From a virus: a stretch of 64,000 bases of DNA. Below are positions 1 through 61,088 of the stretch, in pieces. The notes beneath the pieces were generated by a model. The model was given only the letters and a program-made list of their open reading frames with translations. It did not search any database and was not told the origin of the DNA. The stretch covers positions 1-64,000 of the IMG/VR virus record IMGVR_UViG_3300025519_000001. One strand, written 5' to 3'. Position numbers and translations under genes: made by a program. Numbering within the stretch: position 1 is the stretch's first letter; each line of letters begins with the position of its first letter.

Positions 1-217
1 AGGGCTGAAGTGTTGGAAATTGCAAGTGAATTTATTTGGAGGGAGGGATATAAAAGCGAATTTAACCTAGTCTACAAAGTATGGCGTGAGGGAGTGTTTA
101 TCGAAGATTGAAAAAAGCAGGGCTAGGGACATGTCCGAGAATGCCGGACAGCCGCTATAACAGCGGCCTCCGCTCAACCTGCTATAACAGCAGGAAAAAT
201 TTAGGAGGGATTTATCT

Positions 218-760
218 ATGAAACTGTCTCAACTGCTTACCACCAAAAAAATTATTGCTTCTGGCTTCGCCGCCATTCGCGGCCTTGAAGCCTATTCGAA
301 AGGTTCGGAACCCGTTGTTCTGTCGTCGCTGTCCCCGGCCATTCTGGCAGAGCAAGGCGTAACGGAATTTTACGCGCTTGTTCTGCCGCGCGGTGCCGTA
401 TATAACACGGCTGATGATATTATCGCCGCCGATTTGGACGTGCGTCGTTATCTTATCCAATCCGCCGATGCTAGCGGCATGGAAACTGTGATTGTCTCCC
501 GGCATCCTGGCACGGTCGCTCTTCTCCAAGCGCAATATCCGGGCGCTCAAGTGCTCGACGCCGTGACGCCGGACCAAATCGCCGGCAAGCATGTTGTCGG
601 GACGTTGCCGCCTCACTTGATCACGGCAGCAGGCGCATATACGGCTGCAACTATCCGTGATTTTGATTATACGCGAGACGGCGACTTGTCCGGAAATGAG
701 CTTGCAGAGCGACTTATTATCGCTGACCAGCCGCTTCAGGTCGTGGAGGTAGAGGCATAA
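218..760 (+). CDS. Csx16 (VVA1548)-like protein with an apparent tandem duplication; candidate cyclic-oligoadenylate ring nuclease / anti-CRISPR
   Basis: C-terminal half has the Csx16 signatures IVSRHPG...VVGTLPPHL...RDGDLSGNEL; N-terminal half (VVLSSLSPAILAEQGVTEFYALVLPRG...DVRRYLI) resembles a degenerate second copy; RBS GGAGGG. Confidence 0.7.
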   Translation: MKLSQLLTTKKIIASGFAAIRGLEAYSKGSEPVVLSSLSPAILAEQGVTEFYALVLPRGAVYNTADDIIAADLDVRRYLIQSADASGMETVIVSRHPGTVALLQAQYPGAQVLDAVTPDQIAGKHVVGTLPPHLITAAGAYTAATIRDFDYTRDGDLSGNELAERLIIADQPLQVVEVEA

Positions 761-1066: not shown

Positions 1067-1591
1067 ATGGAAGTTCGAATCTATGTTGCCAATCTCGCCG
1101 CCTATAACGCTGGTCGTCTTGTCGGAGAGTGGATCGACCTTCCGCTTTCCAACGAAGAACTGCGCGAAAAAATCCAGTCCATTCTCGACGCCTGGAACGA
1201 TGGCTTTTCGCCGTCGGAAGAGTGGGCCATTCATGATTACGAAGCGCCTTTTGAGATTGGAGAATACGAAAGCCCATATAAAGTGAATGAATGGGCGGAA
1301 AAATTGTCTAGCATTAACGAAGATGAAGAAGTTATCAGCGCCATTTTCGGCGGTTTTTCCATCAAAGAAGCGTTAGAAATTCTTGAGAATGGCGAATACA
1401 GGGTATACAATGACTGCAACGACATGGCAGACGTTGCTTATGCATGGTATGAAGAAACCGGACGGCTTGCGGAAATTGAAAATGTACTGCCTGTATCTTA
1501 TGTCGATTGGGACGCAATCGGTAGGGATATGGAATTAGAAGGGACGTTTATCTATGCCGGTAATGGCGTATATGTTGAAATAACAGATTAA
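1067..1591 (+). CDS. ardA: Antirestriction protein ArdA (DNA mimic, inhibits type I R-M)
   Basis: IYVANLAAYNAGRLVGEWIDLP, EEWAIHDYE and YVDWDAIGRDMELEG motifs; very acidic; RBS AGGAG. Confidence 0.95.
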   Translation: MEVRIYVANLAAYNAGRLVGEWIDLPLSNEELREKIQSILDAWNDGFSPSEEWAIHDYEAPFEIGEYESPYKVNEWAEKLSSINEDEEVISAIFGGFSIKEALEILENGEYRVYNDCNDMADVAYAWYEETGRLAEIENVLPVSYVDWDAIGRDMELEGTFIYAGNGVYVEITD

Positions 1592-1674: not shown

Positions 1675-4600
1675 ATGGAAACATCCAAGTTTTCCGGATT
1701 GTACGAATATTTGGGTTTCGCGATATATAACGCCGGTTCCCGTCACGAATGGGATATTGAGCCTATTGGATGGGATATTCGAGCCATTGAGCGCTGGAAA
1801 GCATCTTCTTTTTCGTTTCGAACACTGGCACAAGCTAAAAAGTGGATTCGGGAAAATGCCGATAACATTAAGGAGAGTGATTATAAAGCATGAAGGAATG
1901 AACATTATATTGCATTATACTATACGATCCATCGAAGTAATACATAGAAGCCAATAGGAGGTTCAACAATCATGTCCAGATGGTTAATCATTTTCAATCA
2001 ATACCAACCAAACGAAACGCGCTATGAAATTATGGCTTCCACTTGTGACGAGGCTATTATGACAGCCATGAGTGAAGCAAACATCTCCAAACGTCCGCCA
2101 AATATTTCTGCTCAAGTGAAGGAGGAATAATCGCCATGCAAACAATGAGTGAATATAAAAAATACAATTATTCAGGTAAAATTTTGGACGTTCTCTATTA
2201 CTCTATAACAGACGATACTCTATATATCAAATACAATGGCAAACAAGCAATGCGAAAAATTCAACAAACAAGCGAATATACATACAAATTTACAAAAACA
2301 CTCGTAAAAGCAATTAACGGCGCGGAAGGTTTACGTCGCTTCTTCGTTTCATGTCATGACGCTGACAGTCCGTTTAATCGTTCGTTTTTTGATACGTTGG
2401 TTAAACTTGTTTCCTAATATGTTATAACAAACAGCAACGCCATAATAGCGCTTGAAATACTCATTTCATGAATATATGGAGGAATAAAAAATGAATAAAT
2501 GCCTTCTGTATATCCTTGTAACTTTCGTCGATTCTGATTTTAATTTTGACGAGTACGAATGCGCAGATTTGGTGGAAGTAGCAAGACTTAGGGAGGAATT
2601 AGAAAACGATAACTATAAATTTGTATCCGCTCAACCTGTCTATGGTTGATAAAAGTCAATACATTACAAGTAAGACAGCAGCCCATGAAATGCGTTTATT
2701 TCATTCGGGATTGATGATATCCTTTTGATTGTATAACAACCGTCTAGGCGGTGTCTGTATAACAGACGAGCAGCCTTAAGTCTAGAGCGTTACGCGCTAT
2801 ATATTGGCGCGTAGATGGCTAGTAAAAAAAGTTAAAGGAGTAATGTTTTATGAATATTGTAACACGTCCACTTGATGAACACGACTATGAAGCCATGAAA
2901 GCAGAAAAGGAAGAAAGGGAAGCAATCGAAGCTATGATGAACTGGGCAGACAATTTTAAACTTGCATTACAAGAAAAGCGATTTTCTGCGGCAAAAGTTG
3001 CACTCGACAGAATGAATAGCATACTTTCGGATTATGTATAACAGATTGAGGAGGAGTAGTTCACATGACTATCAAACAAGCAAAAGAACTAAAGCGCGGC
3101 TCCGTTATCCTCATCAATCACATAACAGGAAAAGACGAACTCGCCCGTGTTGTCAGATGGGATGAACGCGCACAAGGAATTGACTATCACGCCATTAGTG
3201 GCGGAGGAAGTATTTGTAAACCCGAACATATCATAAAAGTGCTTGACGAAAAGCCCTTTTATGAATCGGAAATATGGGCACAAGCATGGAAAGAAAAATG
3301 GAATGAAAACTATAAAAGAAGCCGAAACGCGCTATAACAGCGCGTCCGTATACGGTGGCAACGTGTACGCTGATGATGGTAAGCCAATATGTAGGAGGCA
3401 TAAAAAAATGAAAGAATGGAAGCGAATTATTGCTGATGCAGGCTATGTGCCTACAAAAAATGGACTTGTTTCATATCTTGACGAAAGAAACAAACTTCCT
3501 TTCATTTGTCCGTTTTGGTCCGAAAAAATCAAATACTATCGCAGTTTAACCATAACAGAACTACTGAAGTATATGGAGGAATAAAAAATGAAAACTAACA
3601 ATAAAAATCGCTTTTTTCGCGACTTTTCCTTTTCTGTTTATCGTTATTCTCCCGAATCCTTCCGGCTTTACTACAAAGGAAAAGAAGTCAAACTTTCGGA
3701 CGATGAACGCTTTAACATGGGATATGCAGCCATAACAAAAGGCAAGCAGGAGGTTTTAAAACATATCAAACGCTGGACGCGCAAAAAGTCTACACTTGCC
3801 AAACGTGAATATATGCCTATCCTTGCAATTCTTTCAGACGATAACAGCGAATACTATCATATTGGTGTCCGTGTCAATCGTTATAACATGATGGAAAAGT
3901 TGTCCGTTTATCAATGGATCAAAGAGGCTTTTAATGATGGGCGTTTTGCTATAAAAACGACAACGGCGAAACTGGACGCGAATTTTAAACCCTATGATGT
4001 TCAAGAAGATCAACACGAAAAGAAATTAGGCAAACGGATTGTATTTATTTAAAAGCAAATAATACATTAACAGTTGAATCATACTATAACAGCAAAGGAG
4101 GGACGATTGACGAAATAACAGCATTAAAAAAATATGTAGGAGAGTGTTAAAAATGAACAAACAGGATAACAACAATAACAGCCAATCGGCATGGGATCTA
4201 GTACGAACATACAGACAAGCAGCACAAAGAGCACAAAAAATGTATAAAAAAGGTAAACCGTTTGATGCTAACAGCATTAAAGCGTTTGAACTATATGTGT
4301 CCTTTTCACGTAAGATGATTAATGTAAAATTGTAAAGGAGTGACTAAACAATGCTAGGTAAATGCGTTCATTATGTATCAGGTATTGAAACAAAGCAGCT
4401 TGTAAAAGTTGATCACTACAAAGGATTCGACTTTTATAAGCTACGCAAAAACGCTAACACAGACTGGACGATGATATATTTTCAGCATGACGGACATTTT
4501 TTTCCGATTAGTAACAACGTTGATAATATTAAAAACTTTTTAGATAATAATTCTAACTTTGACATTGCGACGTTTATCGTTTCCGAATTTGAAGAATCAT

Positions 4601-7600
4601 TAAAAACGGGCGCAAATGTATCCATGGGATATGCACAATATCTAGGACGCGAACAGGAGGCGCTGGAAGCCGTTAGGCGTTTCCGAGAGCGCAAGGAACA
4701 AGAAAAGGCGGAACGTGAAGCGAAGAAAGTAGAAGAAGAACGGAAGCGACTCCAGGAGAAGGAAAACGCCATAACAGCAGCGGAACAAGACTACAAAGAA
4801 AATAAATATATTAATGGAGACATTTTTTTAGAATTGTGCGACAAGTATAATATTACAATCCCCATTCGTACTAGAGGATGGATTAAAGAGAATTTAACAC
4901 GAATCAAGTATAACAGCGAAAGAAGTGTGTCATACAGTCATACGGGCAATCCGTCAAAAAGCATTGTCGATATTGCATTTAGTCTCTATAACAGTTTGAC
5001 GGAAAGCGAACAGGAAAGTGGAGAATATGTCACGCTAGACGAATTAAACAATTTATTCGGCGTGAATGCCTAATAACAGGAGGCCTCTCCCATGTCCACA
5101 ATTCGCGTACTGCCTAACGGCGCATTGGTCAATTCATATCGAATCATCGGCACGTCTACAACAGTCTATGAAGCGTTTGAGCCTTCATCCTACACTGGGA
5201 ATCATTCGTGCATTCAGCGCTTCAATGATCGCGTTTATGGCGCTATCAGCAGCAGGAGAACAAGAAGAAGAGAGGATAACAGCAAAGAAGCATTACAACA
5301 TATTTTCGAAGCATTTCCCCATTTGAAACAAGTTGATTATACTATTGACGAATTTATGGGAACGATTGAAACAATTAACGAATAGGAGATGATAAAAATG
5401 AAAATAACAGTTAAATCTTATAAACCTTTGTTTGCAAAAAAAGTAAAATATGTCGCTTCATTCGGACAATTCCAGGAAGAAGGTAATACGAAAGAAGAAG
5501 CGAAGCAGAACCTTATAACAGCGCTTGAGTGGTATTTCAGCAATACAGGCAACGAATTGACAACTAAAGTTATTCCCGAAGCTGGCGTAACTCTGTTCAT
5601 GCTTAGAACGTTCGCAGGATATGAAATAAGAACAGTCTATCATGATGGAAGAATTTCCATGGGAACGAGTCTATATGGACGTTTAAGCCATAGGGAAGCA
5701 TTAGAACGCCTTAATAGTCATGTAGAAGGATATCAAGCAGTAAAGGCCGTATAACACGAATACATAAACAATGGGAGGTTTATATCTATGTCTCAAACTA
5801 TAGCAGGACAAATGTATAACAATCATATCAAGGAAAGTCTCTTGTCTGGTAAACCTGTAGAATTGAGTATGAAAGACTTTTTGCCTAAAAGCCAGTATAA
5901 CAACAAACAAAAACAATACCAAAAAAACGAATTTGAAAAAGAAATTATGGCAGAATTGAAGCGACTCCAAAGCGAGTATATAGGATTTGAAAATATCCAT
6001 CTTCGCATATCGTTGCTTAAATCTCATGTTATGGAAATGATGGCGAATGTTGAAGATATGGAAGATGTAAAAGAAATTTATAGAGTTTATAAAAATATTG
6101 CTTGGAATAATCCTATCTAATTTAACAACCAATAACAGCACACTCCCATAATATCGGCTCCATATGGTATTATGGGAGTGTGTATACAAAGGAGCGGATA
6201 ACATATGACTCATTTCACGTTTACGGGTTACTACGCAGGACAAACTTTTTGTGGAGTAGCACGAAACGAAACGGATAAATATATGCACATTCAAGGCTCT
6301 AATACTCCTATCATGAAGCGTCTTTTGAGCGGGAAAGAGAAATTATGTCCCCATTGTTGAGAAATCTATTTATCTGAAGGTGAGGATGAGGGCGATGAAT
6401 GAGACAATAAAGCAAGTTGAAGATGAAATAAATCGAATAACAAAAGAAATTAAAACATGTGATAGCAGTGAACGCATCAAGGAATTGCAGAATGAACGTG
6501 ATGAATGGTCTATGATTTTAGGAATCATGTTAAACAAACAGAATACATAACAGCTATGTTTGAATCAAACCAGTCTTTCATTATCACAAACGGAGATAGA
6601 TAAACAATGATTCTAACTATAATTGGAATTATACTCTCTGTGTTTTGTGTTTTATCGTTGCTATTGGGAATTGTCGGGTTATTTAATAAAGAGGATTATT
6701 CCTATAGTGGCAATAGAAGTTATAATAGTATAGGGCCGTTTGGAATGGCATTTGTTTTCGGATTGATTGCATATACTTTGCTTCATGTGCAATAACACAA
6801 TAAAACAAGTATTTCATGACCATATAATAGGAGGCTTTAACAATGGAGAAGTATTTTATTAAGGATCATGGCGACGATTTTGAAGTACTAACAGAAGGGC
6901 AGGCTAAGGGAACGAACGCCATTTCTTTGTTTGAATATCTCAAAAAGCAACTAGATAGTGTCGATGCTTCGTTCTATCTTTATCTCCATGAATTTCCTGT
7001 GTTTGGGGATGAAATAGGTTTAAAGCCAGAAGAGGTTTTACCGACACTTCAAAGGGCAGCAGATTTCCTTGGAGGCATGACACGTTCTCAAGTATACGAC
7101 GAACTTTGCCAACATGATAAATTGGCTGTATTCTTCAAAAGTGAAGCAAAAACTCTTATTAAGGATGCTCTTATCAAGAAAGCAAATTCATTGCTCAATG
7201 AAGCATTAACTCTTTGATAAACAACGTGGAGGTTGTATAACAGCAACCTCCAAAGATCCCATGAAAACGGCATTTCAAGTCTATACAAAAAAATATCAAG
7301 CCGACAGCCGATGATAGAACGGCAGGCCGAAAGGATGGTTAAAAATGGAAAAGGTAAAAGTAACGTATCAAGCAGGACAATCAAGATATTCTAACGCAAG
7401 CGTAGACTACATGCTTGCAGAAGTTGATGGCATCGAACTTTATGCAGAGCGTCCGCCCGTTGAAGATGATGAGACTGGAAGTTACGAGGAGTTGAAATCT
7501 GCGATCATCGAGCAGGCCCAGGCGCATAACATCGACGTGGGACTCTTGGAGTTTTGGTACGACGACGCACAACATTCTAGGGAGGTTTAAACCATGGCAA

Positions 7601-30884: not shown

Positions 30885-32353
30885 CCCTCATGTCGGCAGA
30901 AGACCCCCACTTCTACAAGTGGGGGATGAATGACGACTAGATATTTTACCAATAATATTGACTTTTAGTAAACTAATTTGATATATTATCCATAAGGAGG
31001 TGAAAAATATGCCAAAAGGTAAAACTAAAAATATCATTTACGGTTGTCAGAAACAACAATTAAATCATCTTTCCAAAAAAGAATATATTGCATTAAAAAC
31101 AATGTGCCATTTTGCAAAGAATCTATACAATGTTGGATTATACAATGTTCGTCAATATTATTTTCAGGAACAAAAATATTTGTCCTATGAATCTAATTAT
31201 TATCTTTCTAAAGATAACGAAAATTATAAATCATTAAACAGCAATATGGCACAACAAATATTAAAAGAAGTTGACACGGTGTTCAAATCATTTTTTGGAT
31301 TAATACAAAAAGCCAAACAATCTAATTATGATTTTAGAAACATTAGTCTTCCACGTTACTTGGAAAAAGATAGTTATTTCACCTTAGTCATCGGCCAAAT
31401 TCGTATAAAACCAGACATGACTTTAGATATTCCTATGTCGCCAGCGTTCAAGAGAGAATATGGTAAAGTAACCATTAAAGTACCTGAAAATCTTCGTAAT
31501 AAAAAGATTAAAGAAATTCGTATTATTCCTAAATACAAGGCAAGGTTTTTTGAGATTCAATATACGTATGAAGCTATTGAAGTTCAAAAAGAGTTAGATC
31601 AAAATCATGTACTTGCTATTGATTTAGGATTGGATAATTTGGCTACTTGTGTTACGAATTGGGGTAAATGTTTTATTGTTGATGGTAAAAGGTTGAAATC
31701 TATTAATCAGTGGTACAACAAAGAAAATTCAAGACTACAAAGCATCAAAGATAAGCAAAAATTAAAAGGAATAACCAAGAAACAAGCGATACTTGCAATA
31801 AATCGCAATAATCAAGTTAATGACTATATTCGCAAAACTTCAAGGATTATTGTTGACTATTGTATTAAAAACAATATTGGCTCTCTTGTGATTGGATACA
31901 ATCCAACTCTGCAACAGGGTAGCAATATGGGCAAAAGAAACAATCAAAACTTTGTGAATATTCCAATTGGTCAATTAAGAGAAAATATCAAATATCTTTG
32001 TAAGATTAATGGAATTCAATACAAAGAACAAGAAGAAAGTTATACAAGCAAAGCAAGTTTCTTCGATAACGATGATCTTCCTGTTTACAATGCTGATAAT
32101 CCTCAAAAATATGAGTTTAGCGGCAAACGTATTACAAGAGGGCAATATCAAAGTAAGAGTGGTAGAATTATTAATGCTGATGTAAATGGTGCATTAAATA
32201 TTTTGCGTAAAAGTAAACTGGTGGATTTAATAATCCTACAGTGTAGCGGCGATTTGGACACGCCTTTGAGAATAAGGGTTGCTTGACCAAACTTCTCAAG
32301 AATCCCCCGCTTCTAAGTGAACGAAAGTGAGCGTAAGCGGTGGGAGGGTTCAA
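30885..32353 (+). mobile_element. IS200/IS605-family element, TnpB only; inserted after TTTAT, ends in TTCAA
   Basis: Left-end hairpin CCCCCACTT/AAGTGGGGG, right-end hairpin and TTCAA; precise excision restores the host ORF; no tnpA. Confidence 0.9.
31000..32286 (+). CDS. tnpB: TnpB (RNA-guided RuvC nuclease family)
   Basis: AIDLGLDNLA, EESYTSK and INADVNGALNI motifs; likely start ATG 31009. Confidence 0.93.
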   Translation: MKNMPKGKTKNIIYGCQKQQLNHLSKKEYIALKTMCHFAKNLYNVGLYNVRQYYFQEQKYLSYESNYYLSKDNENYKSLNSNMAQQILKEVDTVFKSFFGLIQKAKQSNYDFRNISLPRYLEKDSYFTLVIGQIRIKPDMTLDIPMSPAFKREYGKVTIKVPENLRNKKIKEIRIIPKYKARFFEIQYTYEAIEVQKELDQNHVLAIDLGLDNLATCVTNWGKCFIVDGKRLKSINQWYNKENSRLQSIKDKQKLKGITKKQAILAINRNNQVNDYIRKTSRIIVDYCIKNNIGSLVIGYNPTLQQGSNMGKRNNQNFVNIPIGQLRENIKYLCKINGIQYKEQEESYTSKASFFDNDDLPVYNADNPQKYEFSGKRITRGQYQSKSGRIINADVNGALNILRKSKLVDLIILQCSGDLDTPLRIRVA

Positions 32354-59772: not shown

Positions 59773-61088
59773 AAATCCACCACAAGAAAGCCCCTGTCTT
59801 TAGGCATGGGGATGAATTGTGGTAGGATAAGTTGGTAAAAACTTGATTTTCATAACTAAAATATGATATATTTATTATAAGAAAAAAGAACGGAGGTGAC
59901 ATTTGTGCAATCCATCACTGTAAAAATCAGATTTTTTCCTGATAACCCAAAGGTCATTAAAGAAGCATCACAAGAATATATCAATATTGTCAATAAATTA
60001 TCTCAACAAGCAGTAGAAAATAAAACTTTCCCTAAAATCACAACAAAAGATATTTCAACTTTTCTTCCATCTGCTGTTTGCAATCAAGCGATCAGAGACG
60101 CAAAATCTGTATATACCAAGTATAAAAAAACCAAAAAATTATCTGTTCTTAAGAAGCCAGTATATTATATTAATAATCAAAATTATACCATTCTTGATAA
60201 TGCAATTGCCTTTCCTATATCTATTAACGGAAAAACGAAAAAGACATATTTTAAAGCCATTGCAACAGATAGAGATATAGAATTAATCAAAAAATCCAAA
60301 CTTGGTCTTATGCGTATTGTAGAGAAATCAGGTAAATGGTATGCTCAAGTGTCCATTCAAATTCCAGAAGAAAAATTTAGTGGCGAAAATATCATGGGCA
60401 TTGATCTTGGCTTAAAAGTTCCTGCTGTTGCTGTAACATCAACAGGCAAGACAAGATTTTTTGGTAATGGTAGGCAAATGAAATATGTCAGGCGCAAATA
60501 TCAGTCTCGCAGAAGAAAATTGGGTAAACTTAAAAAACTTTCGGCCATCAAAAAATTAGGCGATAAAGAAAGCAGATGGATAAAAGACCAAAATCATAAA
60601 ATCAGTAGACAGATTGTGAATTATGCTATACAAGAAAATGCAAGTATGATAAAACTAGAAAAATTAGAAAATATTCGCAAGACGACAAGAACAAGTCGTA
60701 AAAACGCAAGGAATCTGCACAACTGGTCATTCTATCAACTGCAACAGTTTATCACATATAAGGCTAACTTGGCAGGAATTAAAGTTATAGAAGTTAATCC
60801 TGCATATACAAGTCAAACATGTCCTCGTTGTGGTAAACGAAATAAAGCAGATGATAGACGATATGAATGCTCATGTGGATTCAAGACACATAGAGATCGG
60901 GTTGGTGCAATAAACATCATGAACCAACCTGTGGCAGATGGTAACAGTCTGCCAGCCTAAGAACCTATATGGTCTGTCTTAGGATGGGCTGATGGCACAG
61001 CCCTTAACTTGGAGATTGCACGAAGTAGAAATGCATGAGTGCGCGAATCATCCAAGAATCCCTCGGATTTATCCGTGGGGAGTGTCAA
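59773..61088 (+). mobile_element. IS200/IS605-family element, TnpB only; inserted after TTAC, ends in TCAA
   Basis: Left hairpin CCCCTGTCTTTAGGCATGGGG, right hairpin CCCTCGGATTTATCCGTGGG then GAGTGTCAA; reading frame restored on excision. Confidence 0.9.
59896..60960 (+). CDS. tnpB: TnpB, catalytic D-E-D and zinc finger intact
   Basis: GIDLG, IKLEKL, YTSQTCPRCG, CSCG, HRDRVGAINI. Confidence 0.95.
   Translation: MTFVQSITVKIRFFPDNPKVIKEASQEYINIVNKLSQQAVENKTFPKITTKDISTFLPSAVCNQAIRDAKSVYTKYKKTKKLSVLKKPVYYINNQNYTILDNAIAFPISINGKTKKTYFKAIATDRDIELIKKSKLGLMRIVEKSGKWYAQVSIQIPEEKFSGENIMGIDLGLKVPAVAVTSTGKTRFFGNGRQMKYVRRKYQSRRRKLGKLKKLSAIKKLGDKESRWIKDQNHKISRQIVNYAIQENASMIKLEKLENIRKTTRTSRKNARNLHNWSFYQLQQFITYKANLAGIKVIEVNPAYTSQTCPRCGKRNKADDRRYECSCGFKTHRDRVGAINIMNQPVADGNSLPA

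Follow-up and report, generated by a model that had tools for sequence, protein, structure and literature searches.

A gene near the left end of a large phage genome encodes a protein of 180 amino acids (aa) in which two repeats related to the CRISPR accessory protein Csx16 are joined in one chain, and the most probable role of this protein, at roughly 0.55, seems to be that of a one-chain, one-site ring nuclease acting on cyclic tetra-adenylate (cA4) against type III CRISPR. The gene, called here the double Csx16-like gene, lies in a window of 64,000 nucleotides (nt) that forms the first 64 kb of the 154,759-bp IMG/VR virus record IMGVR_UViG_3300025519_000001 (CheckV completeness 96%). Whether type III CRISPR signalling ends in the death, the arrest or the survival of the cell is decided by ring nucleases. 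The activity of Csx16 was first shown in 2025, through an enzyme assay and structure modelling, and it consists of ring cleavage specific for cA4 (Hoikkala et al. 2025, PMC12409355). An earlier note on this DNA had described Csx16 as a ring nuclease of cyclic oligoadenylates (cOA); the literature found contains no solved Csx16 structure and no defined catalytic residues. Moreover, ring nucleases are used by viruses and phages as anti-CRISPRs (PMC12409355, PMC12830947, PMC13148439), and an anti-type III ring nuclease is the best guess for the double Csx16-like protein because of the published cA4 activity of Csx16 (PMC12409355).

The C-terminal half is, to judge from its sequence, clearly a Csx16 domain, as the earlier note had read from its signature. 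The protein matches Pfam PF09652 over residues 92–144 (E 3.4e-5, 24.4 bits, a little short of the 25-bit cut-off, model positions 2–60 of 91) and the PADLOC Csx16 model (E 7e-6), and an HHalign comparison of the C-half profile with 78 canonical Csx16 domains gave a probability of 99.9% (E 9e-33). TIGR02620 did not match the 180-aa protein at E ≤ 1, and searches of NCBIfam and PHROGs with it returned nothing. A profile from 48 relatives, run against 1.8 billion representative proteins, reached many proteins of 95–130 aa via positions 90–168 only, and the ten of these that were checked score 52–180 bits on PF09652, with 52–83 bits for the single-domain proteins linked to the C half; among the relatives themselves, P0102 scores 27.2 bits on that model, and the ESM Atlas feature matches (0.79–0.89) all restate PF09652. 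The homology to Csx16 (PF09652 Cas_VVA1548/TIGR02620) extends over the whole domain, and the S-R-H and G-x-L-P motifs as well as the beta–alpha order are shared. However, where Csx16 carries R-G, this better preserved repeat of the phage protein carries D-G, the R-G position being occupied by an acidic loop (D150, D154-G155-D156). Residues 149–162 (window ~662–703), which stand in the place of the canonical R-G loop, form a near-invariant, subfamily-specific loop, F-D-Y-x-K-D-G-D-L-x-G-x-E-L, that agrees with an EF-hand/DxDxDG calcium loop at five of six key positions; the sole match in a sequence-profile search of the Protein Data Bank (PDB) was the EF-hand of secretagogin over this acidic loop, and it was not significant (E 1.2).

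The N-terminal half is probably a second Csx16 repeat that arose by duplication, with sequence support that is moderate rather than strong, and the degenerate copy that had been proposed there was borne out at the profile level only. HHalign compared the N-half profile with canonical Csx16 at a probability of 69.5% (P 4.2e-5, 52 columns, score 28.9), aligning residues 31–84 with canonical columns 38–94, which comprise G-x-L-P, the R-G loop, the helix and the last strand. None of 200 column-shuffled decoys equalled this score (10.6 ± 2.4, maximum 20.0), the reversed N-half profile scored 13.7, and the weak matches of hidden Markov models to N-half sequences share one register across many members. 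BLASTP found no alignment between the N and C halves, and HHalign gave only 3% probability for the N profile against the C profile of the same protein; the link emerges against the broader canonical profile. The earlier note had proposed profile comparison and structure prediction for each half, and the N half modelled alone is predicted with confidence to fold independently as an alpha/beta domain (predicted local distance difference test, pLDDT, 92.9), which has the same beta–alpha–beta order as the C half, without one beta–alpha unit. For the whole chain, the AlphaFold2 model reached a pLDDT of 94.7 and a predicted template-modelling score (pTM) of 0.85, a pTM value that indicates, at the level of the prediction, packing of the N and C halves in a fixed arrangement.

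Full-length homologues number 97 at E ≤ 1e-28, and 140 relatives with both halves were collected, in which the two-repeat architecture is conserved. Their mean pairwise identity is 0.41 in the N half and 0.50 in the C half, and the N half would appear to be under purifying selection, being conserved nearly as well as the C half. Three motifs are conserved in canonical Csx16: R-H, in the form (V/I)-(S/T)-R-H, follows the first strand, G-x-L-P comes next, and R-G precedes the last helix. In the 180-aa protein the complete set is present only across both halves, as R95-H96 from the C half plus R58-G59 from the N half, and not within one of them. The residues at the motif positions of both halves are each conserved in 88–100% of the 140 relatives, including R95 (123/140), H96 (137/140), R58 (134/140) and F17 (137/140). 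The retention of one full conserved set argues for a working single site and not for a dead binder.

A comparable division of motifs recurs in true tandem Csx16 proteins. The profile search returned clear proteins with two PF09652 repeats, 190–230 aa long and with short linkers (e.g., P0172, P0187, P0208 and P0231), and a one-chain Csx16 pair is therefore geometrically feasible; a word-indexed search to enlarge this set added three proteins, and a related-locus search with P0172 gave one weak partial match only (residues 42–79). In twelve of the 16 tandems, R-H (or K-H) survives in a single repeat and R-G survives solely in its partner, while two of the remaining four have lost a single motif, one has all four motifs and one is ambiguous; both motifs kept in one repeat and both lost in the other was found in none of the 16. 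The split is seen in both repeat orders, and a poorly resolved tree suggests that duplication and loss took place several times independently, with about seven lineages including the double Csx16-like family, the C halves of which form their own clade (SH-aLRT 99). If each pattern were a coin toss, the probability of the split in seven of seven lineages would be about 0.008. This complementary retention suggests a cross-protomer site, and the simplest explanation would be that each site of the Csx16 dimer combines R-H from one protomer with R-G from its partner, so that fusion makes one of the two sites dispensable. On that reading, the 180-aa protein would retain exactly one full site. The lineages in which one repeat keeps an R-H and its partner keeps an R-G amount to a natural experiment that predicts how the active site of Csx16 is assembled, and the split predicts that one site suffices. 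Like the phage protein, the tandems are single chains with two repeats, a short linker and, mostly, split R-H and R-G; however, Pfam recognises both of their repeats, whereas the N repeat of the phage protein, which lacks one beta–alpha unit, needs profile–profile comparison.

In the mechanism that we propose, the 180-aa polypeptide would imitate the Csx16 homodimer, its N and C halves packing in a dimer-like manner. The C repeat would give S-R-H and the G-x-L-P loop and the eroded N repeat would give R-G, and a single composite site for nucleotide binding and cleavage would form in place of the two sites of the symmetric homodimer. The protein could bind cA4 from the Cas10 of the host type III CRISPR system on its pseudo-dimeric face and open the ring at one position, and the cA4-dependent type III effectors would hence never be activated. 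The protein might be made early, from a recently acquired cassette rich in guanine and cytosine (GC), and its mRNA would probably be freed by a twister-sister ribozyme.

Several known systems help to place this protein. Canonical Csx16 is a single domain of ~95–130 aa, modelled as a homodimer and encoded in or beside type III cas loci, whereas the phage protein has 180 aa and a second, eroded repeat, and its family occurs in phage, prophage or mobile-element-like contexts. AcrIII-1/Crn2 (DUF1874) is a viral cA4 ring nuclease that serves as an anti-CRISPR, and, as a phage enzyme destroying cA4, it has the same job as the one proposed here. The solved DUF1874 protein AFV3-109 (PDB 2j6c) is near the top of the PDB structural matches to the predicted model, being the best match of the N half and the second-best of the whole model; no match to DUF1874 itself was found, PF09652 being the sole Pfam match of the 180-aa protein at E ≤ 1. 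AFV3-109 (2J6B) has also been reported as a match for Csx16 (PMC12409355). SAVED proteins follow the same evolutionary logic, from a dimeric cyclic-nucleotide sensor to a one-chain pseudo-dimer, but they are sensors fused to effectors, whereas the phage protein is small and stands alone; no SAVED protein was among the structural matches of the predicted model.

The family of the double Csx16-like protein includes gp42 of Bacillus phage Shbh1 (annotated as 'CRISPR related domain'), a protein of Clostridium phage phiCs5676-1 with a 160-aa extension, and members in 11 IMG/VR contigs, in prophages of Cohnella algarum and Paenibacillus medicaginis and in mobile-element-like contigs. All of the contexts examined are phage, prophage or mobile-element-like, which fits an anti-defence role, and cas genes were beside family members in none of them. 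Cas10 models matched neither the 154.8-kb phage record nor the two lysogens (Cohnella and Paenibacillus). The gene is therefore outside any cas locus, as the earlier note had stated, and service to a phage-encoded cOA system was rejected because the record has no Cas10. Among 151 sampled genomes of the bacterial family of the lysogens, 15 carry Cas10/Cmr2 above the cut-off, so the proposed type III target is present in that host range. Thus, from the idea that the gene is a co-opted anti-CRISPR encoding a pseudo-dimer next to ardA, a fused, asymmetric Csx16 pair on a phage and contexts fitting anti-defence stand, whereas the adjacency to ardA, true of the window, is not conserved. The GC content of the gene is 0.549, against 0.343 for the window, which suggests that the gene was acquired recently from a donor of higher GC content. 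Its neighbouring genes are mostly ORFans, and the larger genes of the window match phage families (DnaB-like helicase, RecJ-like exonuclease, Sak4-like annealing protein and DNA methyltransferase); the closest cultured relatives of the record are large Bacillus and Brevibacillus phages, at ~37% protein identity. Some relatives have C-terminal extensions of 100–230 aa without a Pfam domain (P0117, P0099, P0102, P0149 and P0155; L003 4989–6017), and P0117 contains a third Csx16-like stretch (N + C + C).

The near-invariant F17 and the acidic loop (D150/D154/D156/E161) at the lost site leave room for sponge, altered-ligand and metal-dependent activities. A different messenger or a sponge had also been suggested by the earlier note, and this suggestion found no positive support, the single full set of conserved residues arguing for a working site. 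As a sponge, which we hold to be unlikely, the protein would bind cA4 tightly on its asymmetric two-repeat face without cleaving it, and signalling would be disarmed by sequestration. Of the two symmetric sites one has clearly been lost, the C half has D-G-D in place of the canonical R-G, and F17, D154 and D156 at the lost site are near-invariant, as a binding surface would be. Phage sponges for other signals are known, which speaks in the same direction, as does the sponge role raised for Csx15 (PMC12409355). However, R95-H96 and R58 are each conserved in 88–98% of the 140 relatives, and the retention of one R-H and one R-G across the tandem lineages is what would be expected for one kept catalytic site, a pattern for which a pure binder would have no need. 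No more probable than the sponge is that the asymmetry is adaptive and not the outcome of decay, in which case a half-site rebuilt from F17 and the DxxxDGD loop would provide new specificity or chemistry, and the R-H/R-G split would mean that all Csx16 sites are cross-interface. If so, cleavage could be metal-assisted, or asymmetric signals such as cyclic tri-adenylate (cA3) could be captured, making the protein a dual factor against type III CRISPR and the cyclic-oligonucleotide-based antiphage signalling system (CBASS).

A slightly more doubtful possibility is that a messenger other than cA4, such as cA3, cyclic hexa-adenylate or a CBASS trinucleotide, is cleaved or bound by the protein, which would have been retuned by the loss of symmetry, possibly with a metal at D150/D154/D156/E161. 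SAVED domains came to read asymmetric ligands via the fusion of two CARF-like domains in one chain. Moreover, the loop D-x-x-x-D-G-D-L-x-x-x-E is similar to calcium loops of the DxDxDG/EF-hand type, the lysogens that bear homologues lack Cas10, and phage enzymes of the Crn4b type acting on cA3 have been proposed (PMC12830947). Nevertheless, the sole tested Csx16 is strictly cA4-specific and active in ethylenediaminetetraacetic acid (PMC12409355), the motifs with which the C half faces the ligand are the canonical ones, and there is no positive evidence for another ligand. Least likely among these alternatives, a role in phage physiology as a small nucleotide binder or regulator, with mere descent from Csx16 and no part in counter-defence, would be compatible with the ORFan neighbours, the non-conserved ardA adjacency and the extensions without known domains, but it accords poorly with the phage, prophage or mobile-element-like context of all examined cases, with the position of the gene among early accessory genes, with the retained ligand-site motifs of Csx16 and with the behaviour of the gene as a GC-foreign mobile cassette.

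Co-option of Csx16 by phages is not new, because phage Csx16 genes have already been counted in a survey, in two phage genomes (PMC12409355), that of Shbh1 possibly among them, and the novelty of the one-chain ring nuclease proposed here is its architecture. Three things are new here: a one-chain form with two repeats that is conserved, its complementary retention of motifs, which true tandems also show, and the link to a twister-sister ribozyme; no paper on tandem Csx16 proteins, the motif split or the ribozyme link was found in the literature, in which Makarova et al. 2020 was not covered. This widespread phage-borne form, with its 140 relatives, is barely detected by curated models, and surveys of viral anti-CRISPRs therefore probably undercount it.

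Table 1. Features of the double Csx16-like gene, its surroundings and the right end of the phage record. Positions are those of the window unless a locus is named.
Feature	Position	Strand	Description
Twister-sister self-cleaving ribozyme	115..186	+	Rfam RF02681, 42 bits (gathering 34), E 3e-7, full-length; 32 nt 5' of ATG
Hairpin CCTGC-TATAACA-GCAGG	178..194	+	Read from sequence; 5' arm = 3' strand of ribozyme outer stem
Shine-Dalgarno AGGAGGG	203..209	+	Read from sequence; 8 nt 5' of ATG
Double Csx16-like gene	218..760, stop codon included	+	ATG start, 180 aa
N-terminal half, residues 1-86	218..475	+	Probable degenerate Csx16 repeat; G16-F17 replaces R-H; P57-R58-G59 kept
C-terminal half, residues ~90-178	485..751	+	Csx16 domain with S94-R95-H96 and G128-T-L-P131
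ardA anti-restriction gene	1067..1591	+	Pfam PF07275, E 5.4e-36; 306 nt 3' of double Csx16-like gene
ArdC_N-like open reading frame (ORF)	L019 4223-4498		Record right end
Second ArdA	L019 (G000 146000-154759) 6072-6596		75% aa identity to window ArdA, ~79% nt identity over 560 nt
DUF7680 gene	L019 6915-7340		Record right end

The ribozyme upstream of the double Csx16-like gene is one of several in this setting. Further twister-sister copies lie in the phage record at G000 153904–153974 and 154632–154702, and downstream of the latter, as downstream of the window copy, come the same hairpin and the AAAAATTTAGGAGGGATT leader (window 178–209; L019 8700–8735). The prophage homologues of Cohnella and Paenibacillus have the same ribozyme ~35 nt upstream (L004 9895–9965; L005 9895–9965), and the ribozyme and the gene therefore seem to travel as a cassette; no twister-sister ribozyme is directly upstream in Shbh1 and three IMG/VR loci. 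Across these ribozymes the RF02681 scores are 42–62 bits, and each is immediately 5' of an accessory gene. Since the 5' arm of the hairpin is also part of the outer stem of the ribozyme, cleavage could permit refolding into a 5'-terminal hairpin. Elsewhere in the window, at 2772–2820 (+), there is a partial match to the Pistol ribozyme (RF02679; 30.3 bits against a gathering threshold of 34.5, E 0.006, model positions 24–68).

A tblastn search with the ArdA of the window against 15 related loci found no ardA homologue, and Shbh1 has an annotated anti-restriction gene 4 kb from its Csx16-like gene; ardA would thus be an early-region neighbour and not a conserved partner. The spread of anti-restriction genes over the two record ends is consistent with an early region for anti-defence. 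At the right end there are two further ORFs without a Pfam match, one of 160 aa (L019 7434–7916) with a GC content of 0.55, which makes it no less foreign than the Csx16-like gene, and one of 200 aa (L019 8032–8634) that is flanked by the two twister-sister ribozymes. A 5'-truncated ORF at the left end stops at window 109–111 and another ORF begins 27 nt before the record end; joined together, these ORFs would not share a reading frame, which implies a stretch of missing sequence between the record ends. Matches to the transposase family phrog_506 lie within the phage at window 31000–32286 and 59896–60960 (E 2e-35 and 5e-54).
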